A stretch of 64,000 bases of DNA. Origin: Vulcanimicrobiota bacterium (lineage in GTDB: Bacteria > Vulcanimicrobiota > Vulcanimicrobiia > Vulcanimicrobiales > Vulcanimicrobiaceae). The first letter of the stretch is position 1, and each line of letters opens with the position of its first letter. Positions 2,360 to 14,104 of the stretch are shown piece by piece. Position numbers and translations under genes: made by a program. The notes below the pieces were generated by a model that saw nothing but the letters and a program-made list of their open reading frames with translations, was not told the origin of the DNA and did no database searches. The DNA is taken from positions 32,001-96,000 of the forward strand of contig CAVZQC010000004.1 in assembly GCA_963777315.1 (NCBI GenBank), in the 5' to 3' direction.

Positions 2360-2647
2360 GTGAGGATGTTGGGCGGCGTTGAATTGCAAGCCGGCGCGCG
2401 CAAACACGCAGATGCCGCCAAGCCGTTGTCGCTTTGGCGAAAAATCGTCTTGAGCGCACGATGGGAGTCGCTCGTGCAGTTGCACGGGGACTTTCCATCG
2501 GCCGACTACGTTAGGCCGTTCACGGTGTTTAATATTGGGGGCAACAAGTACCGCCTGATAGCCGTCGTAGACTACGCCGACGGCGTGGTGACGATTCGAG
2601 CGTTCCTAACTCACGCTGAATACACGAAGGGTAGGTGGAAAAAATGA
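2360..2647 (+). CDS. higB: Type II toxin-antitoxin HigB-family toxin
   Basis: FPSADYV...VFNIGGNKYRLI...FLTHAEY signature. Confidence 0.9.
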   Translation: MRMLGGVELQAGARKHADAAKPLSLWRKIVLSARWESLVQLHGDFPSADYVRPFTVFNIGGNKYRLIAVVDYADGVVTIRAFLTHAEYTKGRWKK

Positions 2648-3052
2648 CGGCTGTAGCAGAACGAGAGTACGGAGCTTTGCTCCAAGAGCGACGCCCGCAC
2701 GTGATTCGCTCGAAACGCGCGTACAGCGAAGCGATGCGCGAAATAGAGGCATTGGCGATTCGCGGCAGCGCGCGTTCGTCTGCGGAGACGGAATACTACC
2801 GGGTTCTCTGCGCCTTGGTGGCGGACTACGAACGCTCCGTTGGCGCGGATGAGTGGGAAGTCGAGATGGCGCCGCTCGAAGCGTTGCGAGAGCTTATGGA
2901 GCTGAAAGGGCGTTTCTCAGGCGCAAGTGGCGGAAGCCATCGGGGATCGCGGAAACACGTCGGCTATTCTCAGCGGGCGGAGAAAAATCAGCAAAGCGCA
3001 GGCAAAGGTGCTTGCGAAGCTTTTCCGAGTGGACGCCGGGCTATTTATTTAG
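2644..3052 (+). pseudogene. higA: HigA antitoxin with apparent +1 frameshift at ~2905-2911 (possibly a sequencing error)
   Basis: ATGA overlap with higB; removing one base from AAAGGGC restores HTH VSQAQVAEAIGDRGNTSAILSGRRKISKAQAKVLAKLFRVDAGLFI*. Confidence 0.8.
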
Positions 3053-3075
3053 GGCGGTGCTTTCCCGTTCCCGAG

Positions 3076-3146
3076 CGTCTGCACACAAAATTCGCGCCAC
3101 TGCATACAAAAAGGGAGCCCGCCGAGCCATTTTCTGTGCAAAGCCG
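3076..3146. repeat. Right copy of ~70-bp degenerate inverted repeat
   Basis: CTGCACACAAAA 3079-3090, CTGCATACAAAA 3100-3111, inverted copy 3130-3141. Confidence 0.6.
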
Positions 3147-3201
3147 ACCTGACTCACCAGGGTGCCACACAGGTGGAACAGCCCAAGTATAGGCTTGGAG
3201 C

Positions 3202-4512
3202 ATGGAAACGCCGACCACTCTCCTCCAAGCCGTGACATTCTTTTCCGATCCCGAGCGAGCGTTTGAGTACGCGGTTAAACTGCGCTGGCCGAACGGTATC
3301 GCGTGCCCGCGCATGGGCTGCGGATCGGCAGCGGTACAGTTTATCTCGACCCGCAAGATTTGGCGCTGCAATGAGTGTAAGCGACAGTTTTCCGTAAAAA
3401 CCAAAACTATCTTTGAGGAATCCCCCCTGTCGTTCACCAAATGGCTTCCGGCGATTTGGTTCCTGGCGAATACCAAGAACGGCACATCCTCGCACGAACT
3501 TGGCCGCGCCCTGGGCGTAACGCAGAAAACGGCGTGGTTCATGTTCCATCGTATTCGCGAAGCCATGAAAACGGACGACGGCGCAGCCTTTTCCGGCGAG
3601 GTCGAAGCGGACGAAACCTTCGTCGGCGGCAAAACGCGCACGAATTACTTTTCGCGCAGCGGCTTTCGCAAACTCAAGCACGGACCGGCGACCGGCAAAA
3701 CGACGGTCTTCGGCATGGTTGAGCGCAGCGCCCAGAAAAAACACAGCCGCGTTCGCGCCTTCGTCGTTCCGAACCACAAGGCGTCCGTCTTGTTGCCCAA
3801 GATTTACGCGAACGTCGAGCTCGGCTCGGTTCTCTATACCGACGCCCTTCGGTCGTATCGGCAAGTCGTTCCCGACTACGTTCACGCCTTCGTGGACCAC
3901 TCTATCCGCTACGTTGACGGCCACGTTCATACGAACTGCATCGAAAACTTTTGGTCGTGCCTCAAGCGGACAATCAAGGGGACGTACATCGCTCCGCGTC
4001 CGTTCCACTTAGACCGCTACATCGACGAACAGGTGTTCCGCTTCAATGCCCGCGAGGGCGACGACGCGCAGCGGTTCCTGAATGTACTCAAGAACAGCGA
4101 CGGCAGGCGTGTGACGTATAACGTCTTGCGGAACGAGAACGCGAAACTGCGCGAGGGCAGCGCGGACCTATTCATCAGCCTCCGGCTCTTCCTCGGTAAT
4201 CTCGTCGGTATCGTCGCCGTCTTCTTTTGGGGCCTGGAACAGTTTTCGGCCCAAGTCCTCGAATCGCTTCATGGCTTCATCGCCGTTTACATCGTCATTC
4301 ATTTCGTGCACCTACTGCTCGTCTTTCGGCACAAAGTAGATCAACTTGTACATGACACCGAACCCGGTTTGGCGGCGCGAGCCGTTGCCTTGCACCTCAA
4401 ACCGGCTAATGCGAAACTGAATATGCCTTTCCCCGGGAGCAAGCGCCAAAAAAGGACCACGAGAACATGCCGCCCTGAGATTGGTCGACATAGCCATTAT
4501 TTTCGATACTGA
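3202..4512 (+). CDS. IS1595-family (ISXO2-like) transposase; last ~110 aa are probably read-through antisense to passenger ORFs
   Basis: Zn ribbon CPRMGC/CNEC, T.FE.S, VEADETFVGG, LYTD, HTNCIENFWS, YIDEQVFRFN. Confidence 0.9.
   Translation: METPTTLLQAVTFFSDPERAFEYAVKLRWPNGIACPRMGCGSAAVQFISTRKIWRCNECKRQFSVKTKTIFEESPLSFTKWLPAIWFLANTKNGTSSHELGRALGVTQKTAWFMFHRIREAMKTDDGAAFSGEVEADETFVGGKTRTNYFSRSGFRKLKHGPATGKTTVFGMVERSAQKKHSRVRAFVVPNHKASVLLPKIYANVELGSVLYTDALRSYRQVVPDYVHAFVDHSIRYVDGHVHTNCIENFWSCLKRTIKGTYIAPRPFHLDRYIDEQVFRFNAREGDDAQRFLNVLKNSDGRRVTYNVLRNENAKLREGSADLFISLRLFLGNLVGIVAVFFWGLEQFSAQVLESLHGFIAVYIVIHFVHLLLVFRHKVDQLVHDTEPGLAARAVALHLKPANAKLNMPFPGSKRQKRTTRTCRPEIGRHSHYFRY
4168..4302 (-). CDS. 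Small acidic hypothetical protein (44 aa), absent from the ORF track
   Basis: MNDDVNGDEAMKRFEDLGRKLFQAPKEDGDDTDEITEEEPEADE*; AGGTG upstream; directly follows the passenger gene stop at 4312. Confidence 0.5.
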   Translation of the reverse strand: MNDDVNGDEAMKRFEDLGRKLFQAPKEDGDDTDEITEEEPEADE

Positions 4513-4969
4513 TCGGCGGTCGAAACATGTACGAACGGACCGGCTCAATGTGCCAATAGATGTGAAGTTTACCCTGCGCCGGAAAAACGAAATCGGCTTG
4601 CAGTTCTTGGCCGAATGGATATTGCAAGGGGAATTGATCGATCCAGGGCAACTTCTTTAGGTTGAAATCCCACAGAAGCGATTGCTCCTGAACCGCTTGG
4701 ACGCGAGCGTTGTGCGCCGTCCAACGCTCTACAGTGCTGTTTTTTGGGTGGGACAGCGAATAGAACCCAAGCGCGCAAAGGACTAGGCTTGCAAGGGACA
4801 GCGCCAGCATGACTTTTTCTCTGCCCGTGGGCCGCTCAAGGAGCCCGGCCTTAGCCACGAACTTCTTCGCAACCCGATGGTCGATGCGGAAATAGGCGAG
4901 CGGAGCACCTAGGGCGCCGATAATTGCCAGAATAAATTCGATGTGCGCCGCCATGCTGGCTAGGTCCAT
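4312..4969 (-). CDS. Membrane-anchored hypothetical passenger protein, probably split by an extra base in the A6 run at 4448-4453
   Basis: Two hydrophobic segments in ORF 4406-4969; one-base deletion joins it to the 4312-4548 frame (SFLALAPGERHIQ...PKDEQ*). Confidence 0.5.
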
Positions 4970-5022
4970 ATATCGCGAGGCGCTTAAATCCGCTTGGTGA
5001 GTCAGGGAGTCAGGTATATCAA

Positions 5023-5053
5023 CTTGACAATTGTTAAGCCCGCGGCGTAACCT
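5023..5053 (+). promoter_or_regulatory. Leaderless sigma70-type promoter of the rib/pur cluster with palindromic operator
   Basis: TTGACA 5024-5029, 18 bp, TAACCT 5048-5053, GTG 6 nt later; CTTGACAATTGTTAAG (5023-5038) is a 7/8 palindrome. Confidence 0.7.
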
Positions 5054-5059
5054 TTTGGC

Positions 5060-6490
5060 GTGCCGCCCTTCGCTGAAGAGCTCAAAACCGCCATGGATGC
5101 GGCCGGCCTATCGGCTGCCGACTTGTCCGAGCGCAGCGGCTTAACGGAGGCGGCTATTTCGTATCTGCGTTCGGGTCAGCGCGAACCATCGTATCGTTCG
5201 CTTCAACGGCTCACGCAGGTGCTGCCGGATCTGGCCGGCACGCTCGAACGCGCTTCGCCCTTCGACTCGATCGACGACGCCGTCAAAGACATTCGAGCCG
5301 GCAAGATGGTCATCGTGCTCGACGACGAGGATCGCGAAAACGAGGGCGACCTGGTGATGGGCGCGCAGATGATCACCCCGGACGCCGTCAACTTCATGCG
5401 CAAGCACGCGGGCGGATTGATTTGCGTGCCGATGATCGGCAAGCGGCTGGACGAGCTGCATCTGCCGCAGATGGTCTCCGAGAACAGTGCCGTGCACGAA
5501 ACCGCATTCACCGTTTCGGTTGAAGCGCGCGGCCGAACCACCACGGGTATTTCAGCACACGATCGCGCCGCGACGATTCAAGCGCTGCTCGATCCGGCGA
5601 CGAAACCGTCGGACCTGCTGCGTCCCGGCCATACGTTTCCGCTGCGTGCACGGGAAGGCGGCGTGCTGGTGCGCGCCGGACAGACCGAAGCGTCGGTCGA
5701 TTTGGCGCGGCTGGCTGGCCTGTATCCCGCCGGCGTTATCTGCGAGATCATGGCCGAGGACGGCACGATGGAGCGGCTCGACGGACTGATCGCGTTCGCC
5801 AAACGCCATCAGCTCAAACTCGTCACGGTCAAGGATCTCATCGCACACCGCTGGCGCAACGAGAAACTGCTCAAACGGATCGCCGAGTTCAAGCTGCCCG
5901 CACACACGGGTACCTGGACGGGCTACGCATTTGAGAATACGATCGACGCCAACACTCACGTCGCGCTGGTCATGGGGGACATCGGGGACGGAAAGGACCT
6001 GCTGGTGCGGGTCCACTCCGAGTGTCTGACGGGCGATGCGCTGCATTCGCTTCGCTGCGACTGCGCCGCGCAGCGCGACGGCGCGATGCGAATCATCGCC
6101 AAAGAAGGCCGCGGCGTCTTCTTGTACCTGCGCCAGGAAGGACGCGGAATCGGCCTGGCCAACAAATTGCGCGCGTACCAGCTGCAGGATCAAGGCGCCG
6201 ACACGGTCGAGGCAAATCTTGCGCTGGGTCTTCCCGTCGATAAGCGGGACTACGGCATAGGATCGCAGATCCTGGCCGACTTGGGGGTGCGGGACATGCG
6301 CATCATCACCAACAATCCGCGCAAGATTTTCGGCCTGGAGGGATACGGCTTGAAGATCGTGGGCCGCGTGCCGATGCACACTGAACCGACGCAATACAAT
6401 AAGCGGTATATCGCAACGAAACGCAGCAAATTGGGTCACATGTTCGAGGAGCCCAAGGCCGGTCCGCTGCCGCACGGCGATCACGCGTGA
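5060..6490 (+). CDS. ribBA: XRE-type HTH fused to bifunctional DHBP synthase / GTP cyclohydrolase II
   Basis: N-terminal ~60 aa HTH; DDEDRENEGDL, RPGH, GQTEA (RibB); RVHSECLTGD, RCDC, QEGRGIG, TNNP (RibA). Confidence 0.95.
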   Translation: MPPFAEELKTAMDAAGLSAADLSERSGLTEAAISYLRSGQREPSYRSLQRLTQVLPDLAGTLERASPFDSIDDAVKDIRAGKMVIVLDDEDRENEGDLVMGAQMITPDAVNFMRKHAGGLICVPMIGKRLDELHLPQMVSENSAVHETAFTVSVEARGRTTTGISAHDRAATIQALLDPATKPSDLLRPGHTFPLRAREGGVLVRAGQTEASVDLARLAGLYPAGVICEIMAEDGTMERLDGLIAFAKRHQLKLVTVKDLIAHRWRNEKLLKRIAEFKLPAHTGTWTGYAFENTIDANTHVALVMGDIGDGKDLLVRVHSECLTGDALHSLRCDCAAQRDGAMRIIAKEGRGVFLYLRQEGRGIGLANKLRAYQLQDQGADTVEANLALGLPVDKRDYGIGSQILADLGVRDMRIITNNPRKIFGLEGYGLKIVGRVPMHTEPTQYNKRYIATKRSKLGHMFEEPKAGPLPHGDHA

Positions 6491-6984
6491 CCGGTGCGGC
6501 CAAAGCGAATGCGATTGACTGCAGCGGCAAACGCTTTGCAATCATCAGCGCGCAATTCTACGAAGATGTGGCGGCGTGGCTCGAGGACGGTGCGCGCCGC
6601 GCTTTGGCCGACTGCAACGTGCGCGAGGAGGACATCGCGCGCTATCGCGTTCCCGGATGCTTCGAGCTGCCGCCGGCAGCCAAACGACTGATCGAAGCGG
6701 ATGAGAAGTTGGATGCGCTGGTCGCGCTCGGTGCTGTCGTGCGCGGACAGACGCCGCACTTCGAATACGTGGCCGGAGAGTGCGCGCGAGGCATCATGAC
6801 CGTGCAAATTGCAACCGGCGTCCCCATTGGATTCGGCGTGCTTACGACCGAGACGCTCGACCAAGCGCAGGAGCGGGCCGATCCGGCACGCGGCGACAAG
6901 GGGTATCATGCCGCCATTGCGGCGGCGATTTTGCTGCACGTGCCCGAAGAAACGGCACCCAAGGCATTAGGCTTTCGGGCATAG
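6487..6984 (+). CDS. ribH: 6,7-dimethyl-8-ribityllumazine synthase
   Basis: VPGCFELP, LGAVVRGQTPHFEYV, FGVLT, ERA, DKG. Confidence 0.95.
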   Translation: MTGAAKANAIDCSGKRFAIISAQFYEDVAAWLEDGARRALADCNVREEDIARYRVPGCFELPPAAKRLIEADEKLDALVALGAVVRGQTPHFEYVAGECARGIMTVQIATGVPIGFGVLTTETLDQAQERADPARGDKGYHAAIAAAILLHVPEETAPKALGFRA

Positions 6985-7006: not shown

Positions 7007-8023
7007 TTGCAAAACCGCAACCGCGTAGAGACCATTCGCTGGACCGGTGACGCCATCGAGTACATCGATCAGCGGCTGCTTCCGCACGAAGAAGTGGTGC
7101 GGCGCGCGGGCACCGTGGACGAAATCGAAAACGCGATCAAAACGCTGGCCGTACGCGGCGCACCGTGCATAGGCGTGTTCGGCGCATACGGCGTTGCTCT
7201 GCTGCGTCACGTGCTCGACGACGGGGCCGCCTTCCACGCCGCGGTGCATCGGATAAAAAATGCGCGCCCCACCGCCGTGAATCTCACGTGGGCCATCGAT
7301 CGCGTGCTGCGCGCGCAGGACATGGTTGCCGAAGCCCACGCCATTCACGCCGAGCAGCGCGACGTCGACCGGCGAATCGGCGAAGCCGGGGCCGAGTTGA
7401 TCTGCGACGGTGCGACGGTTCTCACGCACTGCAATACCGGCCCCCTCGCCACTGCCGGTGAAGGAACTGCGCTGGGCATTATCATCGCGGCTGCCCGAAC
7501 CGGCAAACGCCTGCGCGTATTCATCGATGAAACGCGTCCGCTGCTGCAAGGAGCGCGCCTAACGTACTACGAGCTCGAGCAGGTTGGGGTCGATGCGGTT
7601 CTAATCGTCGACTCTGCCGCCGCGATGACGATTCAGCGCAAAGGAGTCGACGCCGTTCTGGTAGGCGCGGACCGCATCGCCTGCAACGGCGATACGGCCA
7701 ACAAGGTCGGCACGTACGCCCTGGCAATCGCTGCTGCGCATCACGGCATTCCGCTTTATGTGGCCGCGCCGCGTTCGACGTTCGATTTCTCGCTGCGCGC
7801 CGGCGCGGACGTCGAGATCGAAGAGCGCGCAGCCGACGAGGTCACCGCGTACAACGGCACGCGCACGGCGCCGGAAGGGGCTCACGCATACAATCCGGCG
7901 TTCGACGTTACGCCCGGCCATCTGGTGACGGCCTTCATCACCGAGTACGGGATCGTGCGGCCGCCCTATGCAGAATCGGTGCCGGATCTGCAGACGCGCC
8001 CCATCCTCACGGCGCCGGCATGA
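7007..8023 (+). CDS. mtnA: S-methyl-5-thioribose-1-phosphate isomerase
   Basis: DQRLLP, VRGAP, RPTAVNL, THCNTG, ETRPLLQGARLT, GADRI, ANKVGT, NPAFDVTP. Confidence 0.95.
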   Translation: MQNRNRVETIRWTGDAIEYIDQRLLPHEEVVRRAGTVDEIENAIKTLAVRGAPCIGVFGAYGVALLRHVLDDGAAFHAAVHRIKNARPTAVNLTWAIDRVLRAQDMVAEAHAIHAEQRDVDRRIGEAGAELICDGATVLTHCNTGPLATAGEGTALGIIIAAARTGKRLRVFIDETRPLLQGARLTYYELEQVGVDAVLIVDSAAAMTIQRKGVDAVLVGADRIACNGDTANKVGTYALAIAAAHHGIPLYVAAPRSTFDFSLRAGADVEIEERAADEVTAYNGTRTAPEGAHAYNPAFDVTPGHLVTAFITEYGIVRPPYAESVPDLQTRPILTAPA

Positions 8024-8817
8024 AGCACCGGTACGGAGAAATGACGTGGCCGGAGATCAAGGATGCGGCCGCCGCGGGCCGCGTTGCCGTTATTCCGATT
8101 GCCACGATCGAGGACCACGGTCCGCATCTGCCGGTCGACACCGACGTGATGCTCTGCGTGTCGGTGTGCGAAGCGGCGGTCGAGCGCGCCGGCGATCGCG
8201 CCGTGCTGGTTCCGCCCATCAATCACGGATACAGCCCGCATCACATGGACTTTCCCGGACCCATAACGATCGGCGCGGAGACGCTGATCCGCTACGGCGT
8301 CGACGTGTGCAAAAGTTTGGCGCACCATGGATTCAAACGGATGCTGATCGTCAACGGGCACGGAAGCAATACGCCCTTTGTCGACATCATTGCGCGGTTA
8401 ACGGTGGTGGAAACCGGCTGTCTAGCCGCAGGCGTGAACTACTGGGCCGCTCCGGGTGTACGTGAAATCGTCGAATCGCTGCGCGAATCAGAAAGGGGCG
8501 GCATGAACCATGCCGGCGAGTTCGAAACGTCGATGTACATGATGCTGCGCCCCGATCTCGTCGACATGTCCAAGGCCGTTGCGGAAATGAACCATCGGCC
8601 CACCAAAAATTACTGGACCGATCTGATCGCCGGCGACGGGCCGCTGATGATGATGGAACCGTGGAGCGCTTTGAGCGAAAGCGGGGTCATGGGCGATCCC
8701 AGCAAGGCTACCCCCGAAAAAGGCCGCCGCTTTTTCGAAGCAGCGGTGAACGGAATCGTCGAACTCATCGGAGAGATGCGCGACCGGGCGCCGGCGGTTC
8801 GCAAGGATCGCCATTAG
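8020..8817 (+). CDS. Creatininase-family amidohydrolase
   Basis: EDHGPHLPVDTD, NGHGSN, HAGEFETS, GVMGDP. Confidence 0.9.
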   Translation: MKHRYGEMTWPEIKDAAAAGRVAVIPIATIEDHGPHLPVDTDVMLCVSVCEAAVERAGDRAVLVPPINHGYSPHHMDFPGPITIGAETLIRYGVDVCKSLAHHGFKRMLIVNGHGSNTPFVDIIARLTVVETGCLAAGVNYWAAPGVREIVESLRESERGGMNHAGEFETSMYMMLRPDLVDMSKAVAEMNHRPTKNYWTDLIAGDGPLMMMEPWSALSESGVMGDPSKATPEKGRRFFEAAVNGIVELIGEMRDRAPAVRKDRH

Positions 8818-11493: not shown

Positions 11494-12905
11494 AATACGA
11501 CACCTACGCTTCTCCGTTCTCGTGGAGATACGGTCGCGCGGAATTGCGCGCGCTTTTTTCCGAAGAGCAGCGGCGCAAGTTGTGGCGGCGCGTATGGGTC
11601 GAGCTTGCGCGCGAGCAAAGCCGCAACGGCTTGGTGACGCCGGCGGAGCTTGCCGACATCGAGGCGCACGCCGGCGACGTCGACATCGACGCCGCTTTAG
11701 CGGTAGAACGCGAAATTCATCACGATTTGATGGCGGAGATTCGCGTGTTTGCCTCGCAGGCTGCGGTGGGCGGCGGAAAGCTGCATATGGGATCGACCTC
11801 GATGGACATCGAAGACACCGTCGAAACCTATCGTCTTCGGCGAGCCTTGTCGGTCGTTGGGAGCGCGCTGGGAGACCTGCTGCGGGCGTTCGGCGGCAAA
11901 ATCCGCGAATACGCCGACTTGGTCTGCATGGCGTTCACGCATTTGCAGCCCGCCGAACCCACGACGCTTGGATACCGGCTTGCGGTCTACGCTCAAGATT
12001 TAGCGATCGACCAAGGCAATCTGCGCTTCGTATTCGACAACTTGACCGCAAAGGGATTGCGCGGTGCGGTCGGTACGTCCGCGTCCTACGAGCAGCTGCT
12101 CAGCGGCAACGGCTCGTCGGCCAAAATGGAACAGGCGGTGCTCGAGCGTTTCGGCATCGACGCACGCGAAGTCAGCACGCAAACGTATCCTCGTAAGCTC
12201 GATTACCTGTTGCTTACCGCGCTTGCCGGTGTGGGTGCGTCGCTGTCGAAATTTGCGGCCGACGTGCGCATCTTGAGCTCTCCGGAGTTCGGCGAAGTGT
12301 TCGAGCCGTTCGAAAAAGCGCAGGTCGGCAGTTCGGCCATGCCGTTCAAACGCAATCCCATTTTATGCGAGCGCATCGGTTCGCTCGCGCGCTTGCTGCC
12401 CGCATATGCCGATGTGGCCTGGCAAAACGCTGCGACCAATTACCTGGAACGCACGCTTGACGACAGCGCGAACCGCCGGACGATACTGCCCGAGGCATTG
12501 CTGTGCACCGACGAGATCGTGTCCATTGCCGGGCGCGTAGTCGTTGGGCTTCGCGTCGATGCGCAGCGCATGGCACAGAATCTGCGCACTTACGGCCCGT
12601 TTGCCGGAACGGAGTCCGTATTGATCGAAGGCGTGCGCGCGGGCGGCAACCGGCAGCAGTTGCACGAAGTGCTGCGCGCGGCGGCAATGGAATCGTGGAA
12701 TGCGATCGCGCAGGGCAAAGACAACCCGCTCGGACGCCTCCTCACCGAGGAGCACGAGCTGACCAGCCGCGTCGATCCGGCCGAAATCCGGCGCATGCTG
12801 GATCCCGGCAAACATATCGGGACGGCAGCGGAGCGAGCGCGTAAACTGGCTGCGCGAATCGATTCGCTGCCTGCGTTTCCCCAGCAAAAGGACGTCGACG
12901 CGTGA
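11490..12905 (+). CDS. purB: Adenylosuccinate lyase
   Basis: HHDLMA, FTHLQPAEPTT, GSSAMPFKRNP, ERTLDDSANRR. Confidence 0.95.
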   Translation: MKYDTYASPFSWRYGRAELRALFSEEQRRKLWRRVWVELAREQSRNGLVTPAELADIEAHAGDVDIDAALAVEREIHHDLMAEIRVFASQAAVGGGKLHMGSTSMDIEDTVETYRLRRALSVVGSALGDLLRAFGGKIREYADLVCMAFTHLQPAEPTTLGYRLAVYAQDLAIDQGNLRFVFDNLTAKGLRGAVGTSASYEQLLSGNGSSAKMEQAVLERFGIDAREVSTQTYPRKLDYLLLTALAGVGASLSKFAADVRILSSPEFGEVFEPFEKAQVGSSAMPFKRNPILCERIGSLARLLPAYADVAWQNAATNYLERTLDDSANRRTILPEALLCTDEIVSIAGRVVVGLRVDAQRMAQNLRTYGPFAGTESVLIEGVRAGGNRQQLHEVLRAAAMESWNAIAQGKDNPLGRLLTEEHELTSRVDPAEIRRMLDPGKHIGTAAERARKLAARIDSLPAFPQQKDVDA

Positions 12906-14104
12906 ACAAAGGCATCGAAATAGCCCGCGGCAAGACGAAGATGCTGTATGAAGCTGCCGGTCAGCCGGACATGCTCGTGATCAAGCAAACCGACGCCATT
13001 TCCGCGGGCGACGGCGCGCGCCGCGACGAGATCGCCGGAAAGGGACGGCTTGCGGCGCAAACGACCGCGCGCGTGTTCCGGCTGCTCAATCTTTGCGGCT
13101 TGCCCACGCACTACTTGAACGGCGGCGAAGACGACGACGACAACGAAATGCTGGTTCGGCGCTGCAACATGATCCCGCTCGAGGTCGTCGTGCGCGGCGT
13201 CGCGGCCGGTTCGCTGGTACGGCGCAATCCTGGCCTGCAGCGCGGTTCTCTTCTGGTGCCGCGCATGGTCGAGTTCTTCGTCAAGAACGATGCCGAGCAC
13301 GATCCGCTGATCGCTCCGGACGCGATCGTCGCGCAAGGCATCGCAAACCCGGCTGAAATCTCCGCGATGACCGAAATTTCGCGCCTGGCTTTTGAGGTGC
13401 TCGCGCACGCCTGGCGCAAGCGCGACGTGCTCCTGGTCGATCTCAAAGTGGAATTCGGGCGGCTGGGAAGCGGAGAGAACAAAGGCCAGCTGGTCATCGC
13501 CGACGTGATCGACAACGACTCCTGGCGAATTTGGCCGCAAGGTCGTGAAGATCGCATGCTCGACAAGCAGATGTACCGCAATCTGGAGATCGTCGACGAT
13601 GGAGCGCTCGCGAGCGTGAAGAGCGCGTACGAGCAGGTCGCCGAAATGGTCGGCGCGTTCCCGGTCATGCGTCCTGGGATGATCGCGCTGATCGCCGACT
13701 CCGCCGACTCGACCGCACAGCTCAACGCCGTAGCGCAGGCGTTGGGACAGCTCGGGCTCCCGGTCATCCGGCACGTTGCCAGCGCGGCGCGCACGCCCGG
13801 GTACGTACTGCAGCTGCTCCAACAGCACGATGCCACCTTTGCGCGGCTGCTGTACATCACGTTCGGCGGTCCGGATCTCGCGCTCTACGCAATGGTGCAG
13901 AACGGCACGAGCAATCCCGTAATCGACGGCTCCGGCGATCCGAGCGGCATCGCGCTGCACTGTGCGAAGATCCTCGCACTCGAGGACACGGTGCTTTTCG
14001 GGCGCACGCTGCTGGTGCAGACCAACGCGCGCTCGGCGGTGCTTGCCGCGGACGCTCAGCTCAACGCCCAGCAGCAACCCGTCCAACAATCCACTCTTGC
14101 ATAG
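12902..14104 (+). CDS. purC: SAICAR synthetase fused to a degenerate PurE-like domain (PAICS-like architecture)
   Basis: GKTK, ISAGDG, IPLEVVVR, DLKVEFG, ADVIDNDSWRIWP, DKQMYR; C-terminal VASAARTP and T.NPVI. Confidence 0.9.
   Translation: MNKGIEIARGKTKMLYEAAGQPDMLVIKQTDAISAGDGARRDEIAGKGRLAAQTTARVFRLLNLCGLPTHYLNGGEDDDDNEMLVRRCNMIPLEVVVRGVAAGSLVRRNPGLQRGSLLVPRMVEFFVKNDAEHDPLIAPDAIVAQGIANPAEISAMTEISRLAFEVLAHAWRKRDVLLVDLKVEFGRLGSGENKGQLVIADVIDNDSWRIWPQGREDRMLDKQMYRNLEIVDDGALASVKSAYEQVAEMVGAFPVMRPGMIALIADSADSTAQLNAVAQALGQLGLPVIRHVASAARTPGYVLQLLQQHDATFARLLYITFGGPDLALYAMVQNGTSNPVIDGSGDPSGIALHCAKILALEDTVLFGRTLLVQTNARSAVLAADAQLNAQQQPVQQSTLA

Follow-up and report, generated by a model that had tools for sequence, protein, structure and literature searches.

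The gene at 5060–6490 on the forward strand of the window (the whole 64,000-nucleotide stretch of Vulcanimicrobiota DNA analysed here) encodes a 476-residue protein, read from a GTG start, in which an XRE helix-turn-helix (HTH) runs in frame into RibB and RibA. The regulator-enzyme fusion is real and clade-wide, and its predicted self-operator is well supported by comparison of upstream regions. We consider it very probable that HTH-RibBA is both a bifunctional enzyme and an autorepressor of ribBA-ribH.

The domain assignment was taken from Pfam and NCBIfam. Pfam placed HTH_3 at residues 8–55 (E 4.5e-7, 30.3 bits against a cut-off of 23), DHBP_synthase at 73–262 and GTP_cyclohydro2 at 273–438, and no domain other than HTH_3/HTH_31 and these two was found by Pfam in the fused protein. 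The bifunctional RibBA model of NCBIfam, PRK09311, scored 615.9 bits against a cut-off of 569. With both catalytic domains above curated cut-offs, the protein classes as a bifunctional RibBA. All parts lie on the forward strand: the XRE/HTH_3 domain covers residues 4–56 (5069–5227; Pfam and an AlphaFold2 model), the RibB (DHBP synthase) domain residues 68–264 (5261–5851; Pfam, NCBIfam and alignments to solved structures) and the RibA (GTP cyclohydrolase II) domain residues 273–461 (5876–6442; Pfam, NCBIfam, Foldseek and a residue check). The AlphaFold2 model, at a mean pLDDT of 91.9, showed five helices ahead of the RibB fold (residues 4–15, 19–26, 30–38, 45–54 and 56–65), as is characteristic of HTH_3, and the PDB matches of the HTH, though weak, were every one XRE-type. 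The recognition helix is T29-E30-A31-A32-I33-S34. This helix and the loop that follows it are almost fixed across loci, and F4, L8, G27, T29, S34, R41, P43, L51 and P56 were invariant in 68 loci. In 18 close pairs, dN/dS was 0.126 for the HTH and 0.109 for the enzyme, and the HTH is under purifying selection comparable to that on the enzyme part. The fused gene is the single ribBA match in the source genome (89.9% complete), and public annotation of the fused proteins leaves the HTH out.

The residues expected of an active enzyme were all found: C322/C333/C335, Y373, R396 and the RibB acidic loop D88-D97, whose roles as Zn ligands, catalytic Tyr and Arg and acidic loop we take over from the E. 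coli enzymes, are present in the fused protein and invariant among 104 fused proteins, and the RibB Cys and His of bifunctional RibBA are also in place. One position departs from solved structures: RibB carries GQTE (Q208), and five solved RibB domains differ there, PDB 4i14 having His in GHTE, as E. coli RibB presumably does at the matching position. A Gln at position 208 also occurs in unfused proteins (e.g., P0023) and is not specific to the fusion. From family scores and residues, the RibB/RibA part is predicted to make both riboflavin precursors. The sequence-only reading had proposed an in-frame XRE/HTH_3-RibB-RibA fusion with intact domains, and Pfam, NCBIfam and the catalytic residues agree with it. 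Two side observations concern this part of the protein. Tyr222 of RibB (5723–5725) is kept in 91% of fused proteins and in most outgroup proteins and is altered in L032, L033 and L034, the three lineages from which the HTH was lost, a weak hint that it might contact the HTH. In one genome of the same genus (L079; G199:C1:823168-824593), a frameshift close to residue 250, which may be a sequencing error, breaks the fused gene.

The fusion was followed in a sample of 201 genomes drawn from the phylum. Among the 113 genomes of the same family, 112 gave a match, and in 108 of these 112 the alignment begins at query residue 1–4, which answers the concern of the sequence-only reading that relatives might start RibBA without an HTH. 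Three family genomes are unfused (L032, L033 and L034), and in one further genome (L031) a contig end cuts the protein, with a fusion-type linker kept. The fusion was present in 3/3 genomes of the sister family and in 0/15 of the next family in the class, each of these two tallies taking in one unpublished genome (G178, G128). Likewise, the reading frame runs from the HTH into the RibB motif in 77/80 GTDB loci; two of the misses lie at a contig edge, and the third is a 446-aa frame in which the motif pattern was missed, 80% identical to the query over 463 columns. An assembly artefact or a one-off fusion was ruled out by the family-wide alignments from residue 1–4 together with the 77 in-frame GTDB loci. 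Named relatives are Vulcanimicrobiota/Eremiobacterota, and fused RibBA is common to a large group of soil bacteria.

A quick tree built on the enzyme core left outside the fused clade all 14 unfused next-family genomes that had been fetched; the three unfused family members nested within it, two of them (L032 and L034) as long branches. HTH history on this tree took four changes, two of them forced by starred branches: one gain and up to three losses. No HTH of the fused type was found elsewhere in the genomes of the three unfused family members. Relatives were seen among the best 80 of 245 GTDB loci and the best 120 of 193 matches. Spread beyond the phylum found no clear support there: four of the best 80 GTDB loci bear titles of other groups, three of them 74–77% identical to the query at full length, and L215 is a frameshifted copy in a bin with further ribBA matches, most likely reflecting contamination. 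A stand-alone HTH ancestor was also sought, and the six short matches look like fragments or frameshifts. Among the best 150 representatives at 50% identity, searched with the whole protein, the HTH appeared in just two fragments.

Upstream of the gene, a predicted operator dyad, CTTGACAATTGTTAAG, occupies 5023–5038. Its consensus across loci, S-TTGACR-NN-YGTHAA-S (that is, STTGACR-NN-YGTHAAS), gives the half-site S-T-T-N-A-C-R. The left half contains a sigma-70-type −35 box, TTGACA (5024–5029, forward strand), followed after an 18-nt spacer by a predicted −10 box, TAACCT (5048–5053, forward strand), 6 nt ahead of the GTG. Upstream DNA is otherwise unalignable, and the dyad was found wherever the flank of a fused locus was long enough, its conservation across genera amounting to 2.4 bits per base in 68 loci. 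The best-scoring site lay 29–42 nt before the start codon in 68/69 fused loci, the remaining one (L021) being without flank, and 35–36 nt before it in 49/68. Since the anchor for these positions had been picked by score, a fixed-window test was run on 78 further GTDB loci, some from genomes already represented in the initial set (of the 145 loci, 127 are distinct): the dyad was present in 78/78 under relaxed and 72 under strict scoring, against 2/2568 control windows. Exact TTGACA-NN-TGTHAA occurs once in the 2.83-Mb source genome, which holds 170 TTGACA hexamers, two of them with a right half at ≤1 mismatch; two sites with two mismatches exist, and none elsewhere with fewer. A degenerate operator pattern with one mismatch allowed does not discriminate in GC-rich genomes.

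The composition of the dyad suggests two readers. Left and right half-site columns matched closely (C/G 57/10 versus 55/12; A/G 63/5 versus 63/5), and the halves agree except at the third base, fixed as G on the left by TTGACA and free on the right. Such a pattern is what a site recognised by sigma and by a dimeric protein alike would be expected to show. Moreover, in 18 close pairs the right half was identical at 90/90 positions, against 85/144 for the remaining spacer. A TAnnnT motif was found in 53/68 loci, 6 nt ahead of the start codon in 36 of those 53, and a generic promoter scanner called no promoter at ribBA. A −10 box 6 nt from the start is the geometry of a leaderless message, and it points to a leaderless-type transcript that would begin at or beside the start codon.

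The dyad comes and goes with the HTH. The exact pattern was present in 93/113 family genomes against 4/15 of the next family; of these four sites, three were retrieved, two of them before arsR and one within an ORF. With two mismatches allowed, no dyad was found at 18 of the 19 unfused loci L032–L050, nor at L090; the exception, L050, has two weak matches about 2 kb distant. This absence is partly trivial because in most unfused loci ribE lies directly upstream of ribBA with no promoter between them. The sole clean control is L032, a long branch in the quick tree, which keeps TTGACA-17-TAGCCT-6-ATG and in which the right half-site has decayed.

No operator site was found at ribD-ribE (C4:28835-30515), about 6.5 kb upstream and outside the window, and a wider regulon was rejected, the extra sites of other genomes lying before arsR, before a Fur-like gene or in an ORF. 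The predicted regulon is the single ribBA promoter. Some dyads elsewhere deserve mention in their own right. TTGACA-NN-TGTCAA precedes arsR in arsenic-type clusters (L098:3284, L100:3254), and TTGACA-NN-TGTAAA precedes a Fur-like gene beside sulfide-oxidation-like genes (L096:3265, L097:3153); these names were given by eye, that of the Fur-like family on its motifs. Like sites are therefore used by other repressors. Separately, a second palindrome, ATACTTGAAAC-N4-GTTTCAAGTAT, lies 20–310 nt upstream of the dyad in eight loci (L013, L014, L018, L019, L028, L029, L083 and L086), before a divergent gene that by eye resembles a TetR-type regulator, and is most likely the operator of that regulator itself.

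One recognition-helix residue co-varies suggestively with one operator base. Residue 31 occupies the second position of the recognition helix and, in alignment, matches the second Gln of the corresponding helix in the 434 repressor, a Gln that contacts a DNA base. With Ala or Gly at this residue, operator position 12 was T in 59/65 loci, and with Ser in 5/62, a rule broken by 11/127 loci. On a FastTree tree of 118 cores (9/127 loci having been dropped for an incomplete core), nine independent pairs show a change at residue 31, with the operator base shifting the same way in about five, the opposite way in none and not at all in about four. A sign test gave a median p of 0.0625, or 0.031 if the inverted operator is counted, under a half-site definition that was set post hoc. 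The lead itself was spotted by eye, and residue 31 ranks first for co-variation among the 33 variable HTH positions. The sequence-only reading took the enzyme to double as a transcription factor; this proposal is supported and gains a predicted target, the dyad on the −35 box of the gene's promoter, which appears and disappears together with the HTH and apparently co-varies with its recognition helix.

The same data bear on an alternative in which a separate ArsR- or Fur-like repressor binds the dyad in trans and the fused HTH acts otherwise or elsewhere. Some genomes of the class, unfused ones included, do have like dyads ahead of arsR and Fur-like genes, but such a repressor would not account for one site per genome placed at fused ribBA, for the loss of the site where the HTH is gone or for its co-variation with the fused recognition helix, and we regard this alternative as very unlikely.

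An even slimmer chance attaches to the idea that the HTH binds the dyad but activates, or chiefly targets other, looser sites. RbkR is proposed to be an activator (PMC5397151), and wBmxR1/2 increased ribA-lacZ output (PMC3518464). The two sites with two mismatches in the source genome could be looser targets; no second conserved site, however, was found across genomes. The position of the dyad speaks against activation, as it spans the −35 hexamer and the start of the spacer and this −35 is near consensus. An operator over a near-consensus −35 hexamer is the usual layout of a repressed promoter.

A transposon lies at the very same place. An IS1595-family outer end, AGGTATATCAACTTG, occupies 5012–5026 on the forward strand, and its last four bases are the CTTG of the operator and −35 box; the 8-bp target core (5027–5034) is the central 8 bp of the dyad. 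The transposase (3202–4512, forward strand; NF033547, 182.7 bits against 75) belongs to an operator-homing clade and is accompanied, inside the element, by a passenger ORF (4406–4969, reverse strand) with no Pfam family. Of the other end of this copy, only an inner remnant is left (3147–3158), and no second outer end was found in the source genome. A survey of the 201 genomes returned 54 transposase matches. The 13 at ≥64% identity represent 12 elements in 10 genomes, and 11 of these elements lie ≤3 kb upstream of a fused gene by coordinate comparison; the twelfth (L128) is at a contig start, and its ends face the same 8-bp core. Among the 41 weaker matches, one lay within that distance upstream of a fused gene, and none of the 20 fetched had such an end. 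The central 8 bp of the dyad is directly duplicated in four of the five elements with both ends visible (L101, L140, L127/L087 and L126), and in the fifth (L063) it is inverted. Two loci carry the operator itself inverted (L157 and L193; TTAACA left, TGTCAA right), both with Ala31, and together with L063 they hint at IS-driven flips.

By transposase, terminal inverted repeats and 8-bp repeat, these elements class as IS1595, the window's copy being without one outer end. An 8-bp target duplication fits the family (PMC12561309). CTTG being the last four bases of the IS end, insertion restores the −35 box together with the left arm. It also leaves a second dyad, open to further insertions; tandem stacks do occur, and passenger genes are carried. 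The target of this IS1595 clade is the dyad's 8-bp core, and the dyad is rebuilt on insertion, in the window as elsewhere. The operator thereby serves one transposon clade as a constant landing place, and the element's end restores the promoter; as site-specific transposition, this is a compact example. We know of no case of site-specific transposition in the IS1595 family, and no operator-homing IS1595 was found in the IS1595-targeting literature, covered mainly through open-access main texts. As a side observation, a higB-higA-like toxin-antitoxin pair (2360–3192; HigB by Pfam match), whose antitoxin frame appears frameshifted, lies directly upstream of the truncated left end and may have arrived as cargo with a second insertion, one that took away the outer IS end.

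The slimmest chance of all goes to the dyad being a mere transposon product, CTTG-N8-CAAG, kept as promoter plus insertion scar and not as an operator: an IS-end-like sequence does supply the CTTG of the left half in 23/68 loci and head-to-head junctions recreate the full dyad (L063, L087, L127 and L128), but the right half is host DNA, retained in 44/45 loci without an IS end and in compact ribD-ribE-promoter-ribBA loci (L068, L069 and L077), scars would not be maintained at such conservation across genera, and A or T prevails at position 12 in place of the C that an IS end would put there. Since the right arm is kept in loci without an IS end, the dyad does not depend on the element.

Returning to autorepression, the mechanism we propose is simple. 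RibB and RibA are homodimers, and a RibB/RibA homodimer would hold two XRE heads, which could bind the two dyad halves across the −35 box and block RNA polymerase. Once enough free enzyme had accumulated, ribBA-ribH, and perhaps the genes from mtnA onward, would be turned down. Three signals can be envisaged. No sign was found that the protein senses GTP, ribulose-5-phosphate or a flavin, the ligands which the sequence-only reading had raised as possibilities. Comparison of fusion-specific residues of the enzyme core revealed no clear ligand pocket, and plain negative feedback on the concentration of the enzyme was for that reason taken as the default, with roughly even prospects. Release by a substrate, GTP or ribulose-5-phosphate, with the idle enzyme repressing, seems a reasonable but lesser candidate, and co-repression by a flavin, the least likely of the three, is improbable. 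A broader proposal, tentative at best, combines ligand gating, in which active-site GTP or ribulose-5-phosphate or a flavin would re-orient the heads, with homing of the IS1595 clade to the operator as a safe harbour, its ends mimicking half-sites and the repressor possibly guiding it. If true, ligand gating would equip bacteria with a sensor made of protein at the first step into riboflavin synthesis.

What is known of riboflavin genes in bacteria concerns chiefly their control by riboswitches. The FMN riboswitch RF00050, recovered in 7/14 by the search control, was found in 0/1 source genome, in 0/141 phylum genomes and in none of the 20 fetched loci L031–L050, and the locus does not class as an FMN-riboswitch-controlled rib operon. 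There would be no room for a riboswitch either, because the transcript is predicted to start at or next to the start codon. As unfused relatives in the phylum are also without an FMN riboswitch, the fusion looks like a gain of control rather than a riboswitch swap. For lineages without the riboswitch, pathway control gains a named candidate protein, a predicted 16-bp site, a residue predicted to read a base, and deletion controls provided by nature.

Downstream, ribH (lumazine synthase; 6487–6984, forward strand) overlaps the ribBA stop codon by 4 nt and follows fused ribBA in nearly all loci. It is followed on the same strand by mtnA (methylthioribose-1-phosphate isomerase; 7007–8023, forward strand), a creatininase-family gene, an ABC binding protein and purB-purC. 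Across loci, mtnA is commonly the next or near-next gene and may be co-transcribed with ribBA-ribH. The creatininase-family gene (8020–8817), two genes past ribH, scored under all NCBIfam cut-offs, gave a weak match to the archaeal riboflavin deformylase ArfB (E 2e-6) and, among loci reaching that far, occurs at this place in the same genus only. Further on, and in the same orientation as ribBA-ribH, comes a purB-purC-purL run, in which the gene at 12902–14104 encodes PurC with a C-terminal PurE-like piece (weak match).

How does this arrangement compare with known systems? No HTH-RibBA was found in the riboflavin-regulation literature, covered mainly through open-access main texts, and the terms 'helix-turn-helix' and 'DNA-binding' are absent from the main text of two recent riboflavin reviews (PMC12542839, PMC13028884). 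For the transposon, ISApl4 of the IS1595 family has the same zinc-ribbon DDE transposase, terminal inverted repeats and 8-bp duplication (PMC12561309). In that source, ISApl4 inserts at many A/T-rich sites, whereas the clade described here sits at one host operator and, unlike ISApl4, has an end that rebuilds the −35 box. For the enzyme, M. tuberculosis RibBA (4i14), which has both catalytic domains, matched at E 8.4e-135 and was, in a separate comparison, the top Foldseek match; unlike HTH-RibBA, neither it nor PRK09311 has an HTH. The Wolbachia factors wBmxR1 and wBmxR2 are XRE-type and bind the promoter of a bifunctional ribA; they differ in being stand-alone activators that co-regulate type IV secretion and leave their own promoters unbound (PMC3518464).

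BirA, NadR and PutA are listed as trigger enzymes in PMC5397151. Each joins a DNA-binding domain to an active metabolic enzyme and represses genes of the same pathway, as is predicted for HTH-RibBA. They differ in enzyme and pathway, none being a GTP cyclohydrolase II or DHBP synthase, and their known effectors are substrates or products of the enzyme part. The head of NadR is XRE-type. In HTH-RibBA, too, the HTH is joined to an intact enzyme of the pathway that it is predicted to regulate, as in trigger-enzyme fusions. The nearest parallel is RbkR of Archaea, likewise a riboflavin-pathway enzyme with an N-terminal DNA-binding domain, which, according to PMC5397151, binds palindromic operators at rib genes in hosts without FMN riboswitches and has lost its DNA-binding domain again in some lineages. 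RbkR is recognised by a winged HTH together with a CTP-dependent riboflavin kinase domain, a combination that HTH-RibBA does not show: the former, a sensor of FMN/CTP and proposed activator of a regulon, has its winged HTH on riboflavin kinase, the enzyme of the last step, whereas the latter, in bacteria, puts an XRE HTH on first-step RibBA and has one predicted site, over its own −35 box. With HTH-RibBA, the first-step enzyme of riboflavin synthesis would join the short list of enzyme-regulator fusions.
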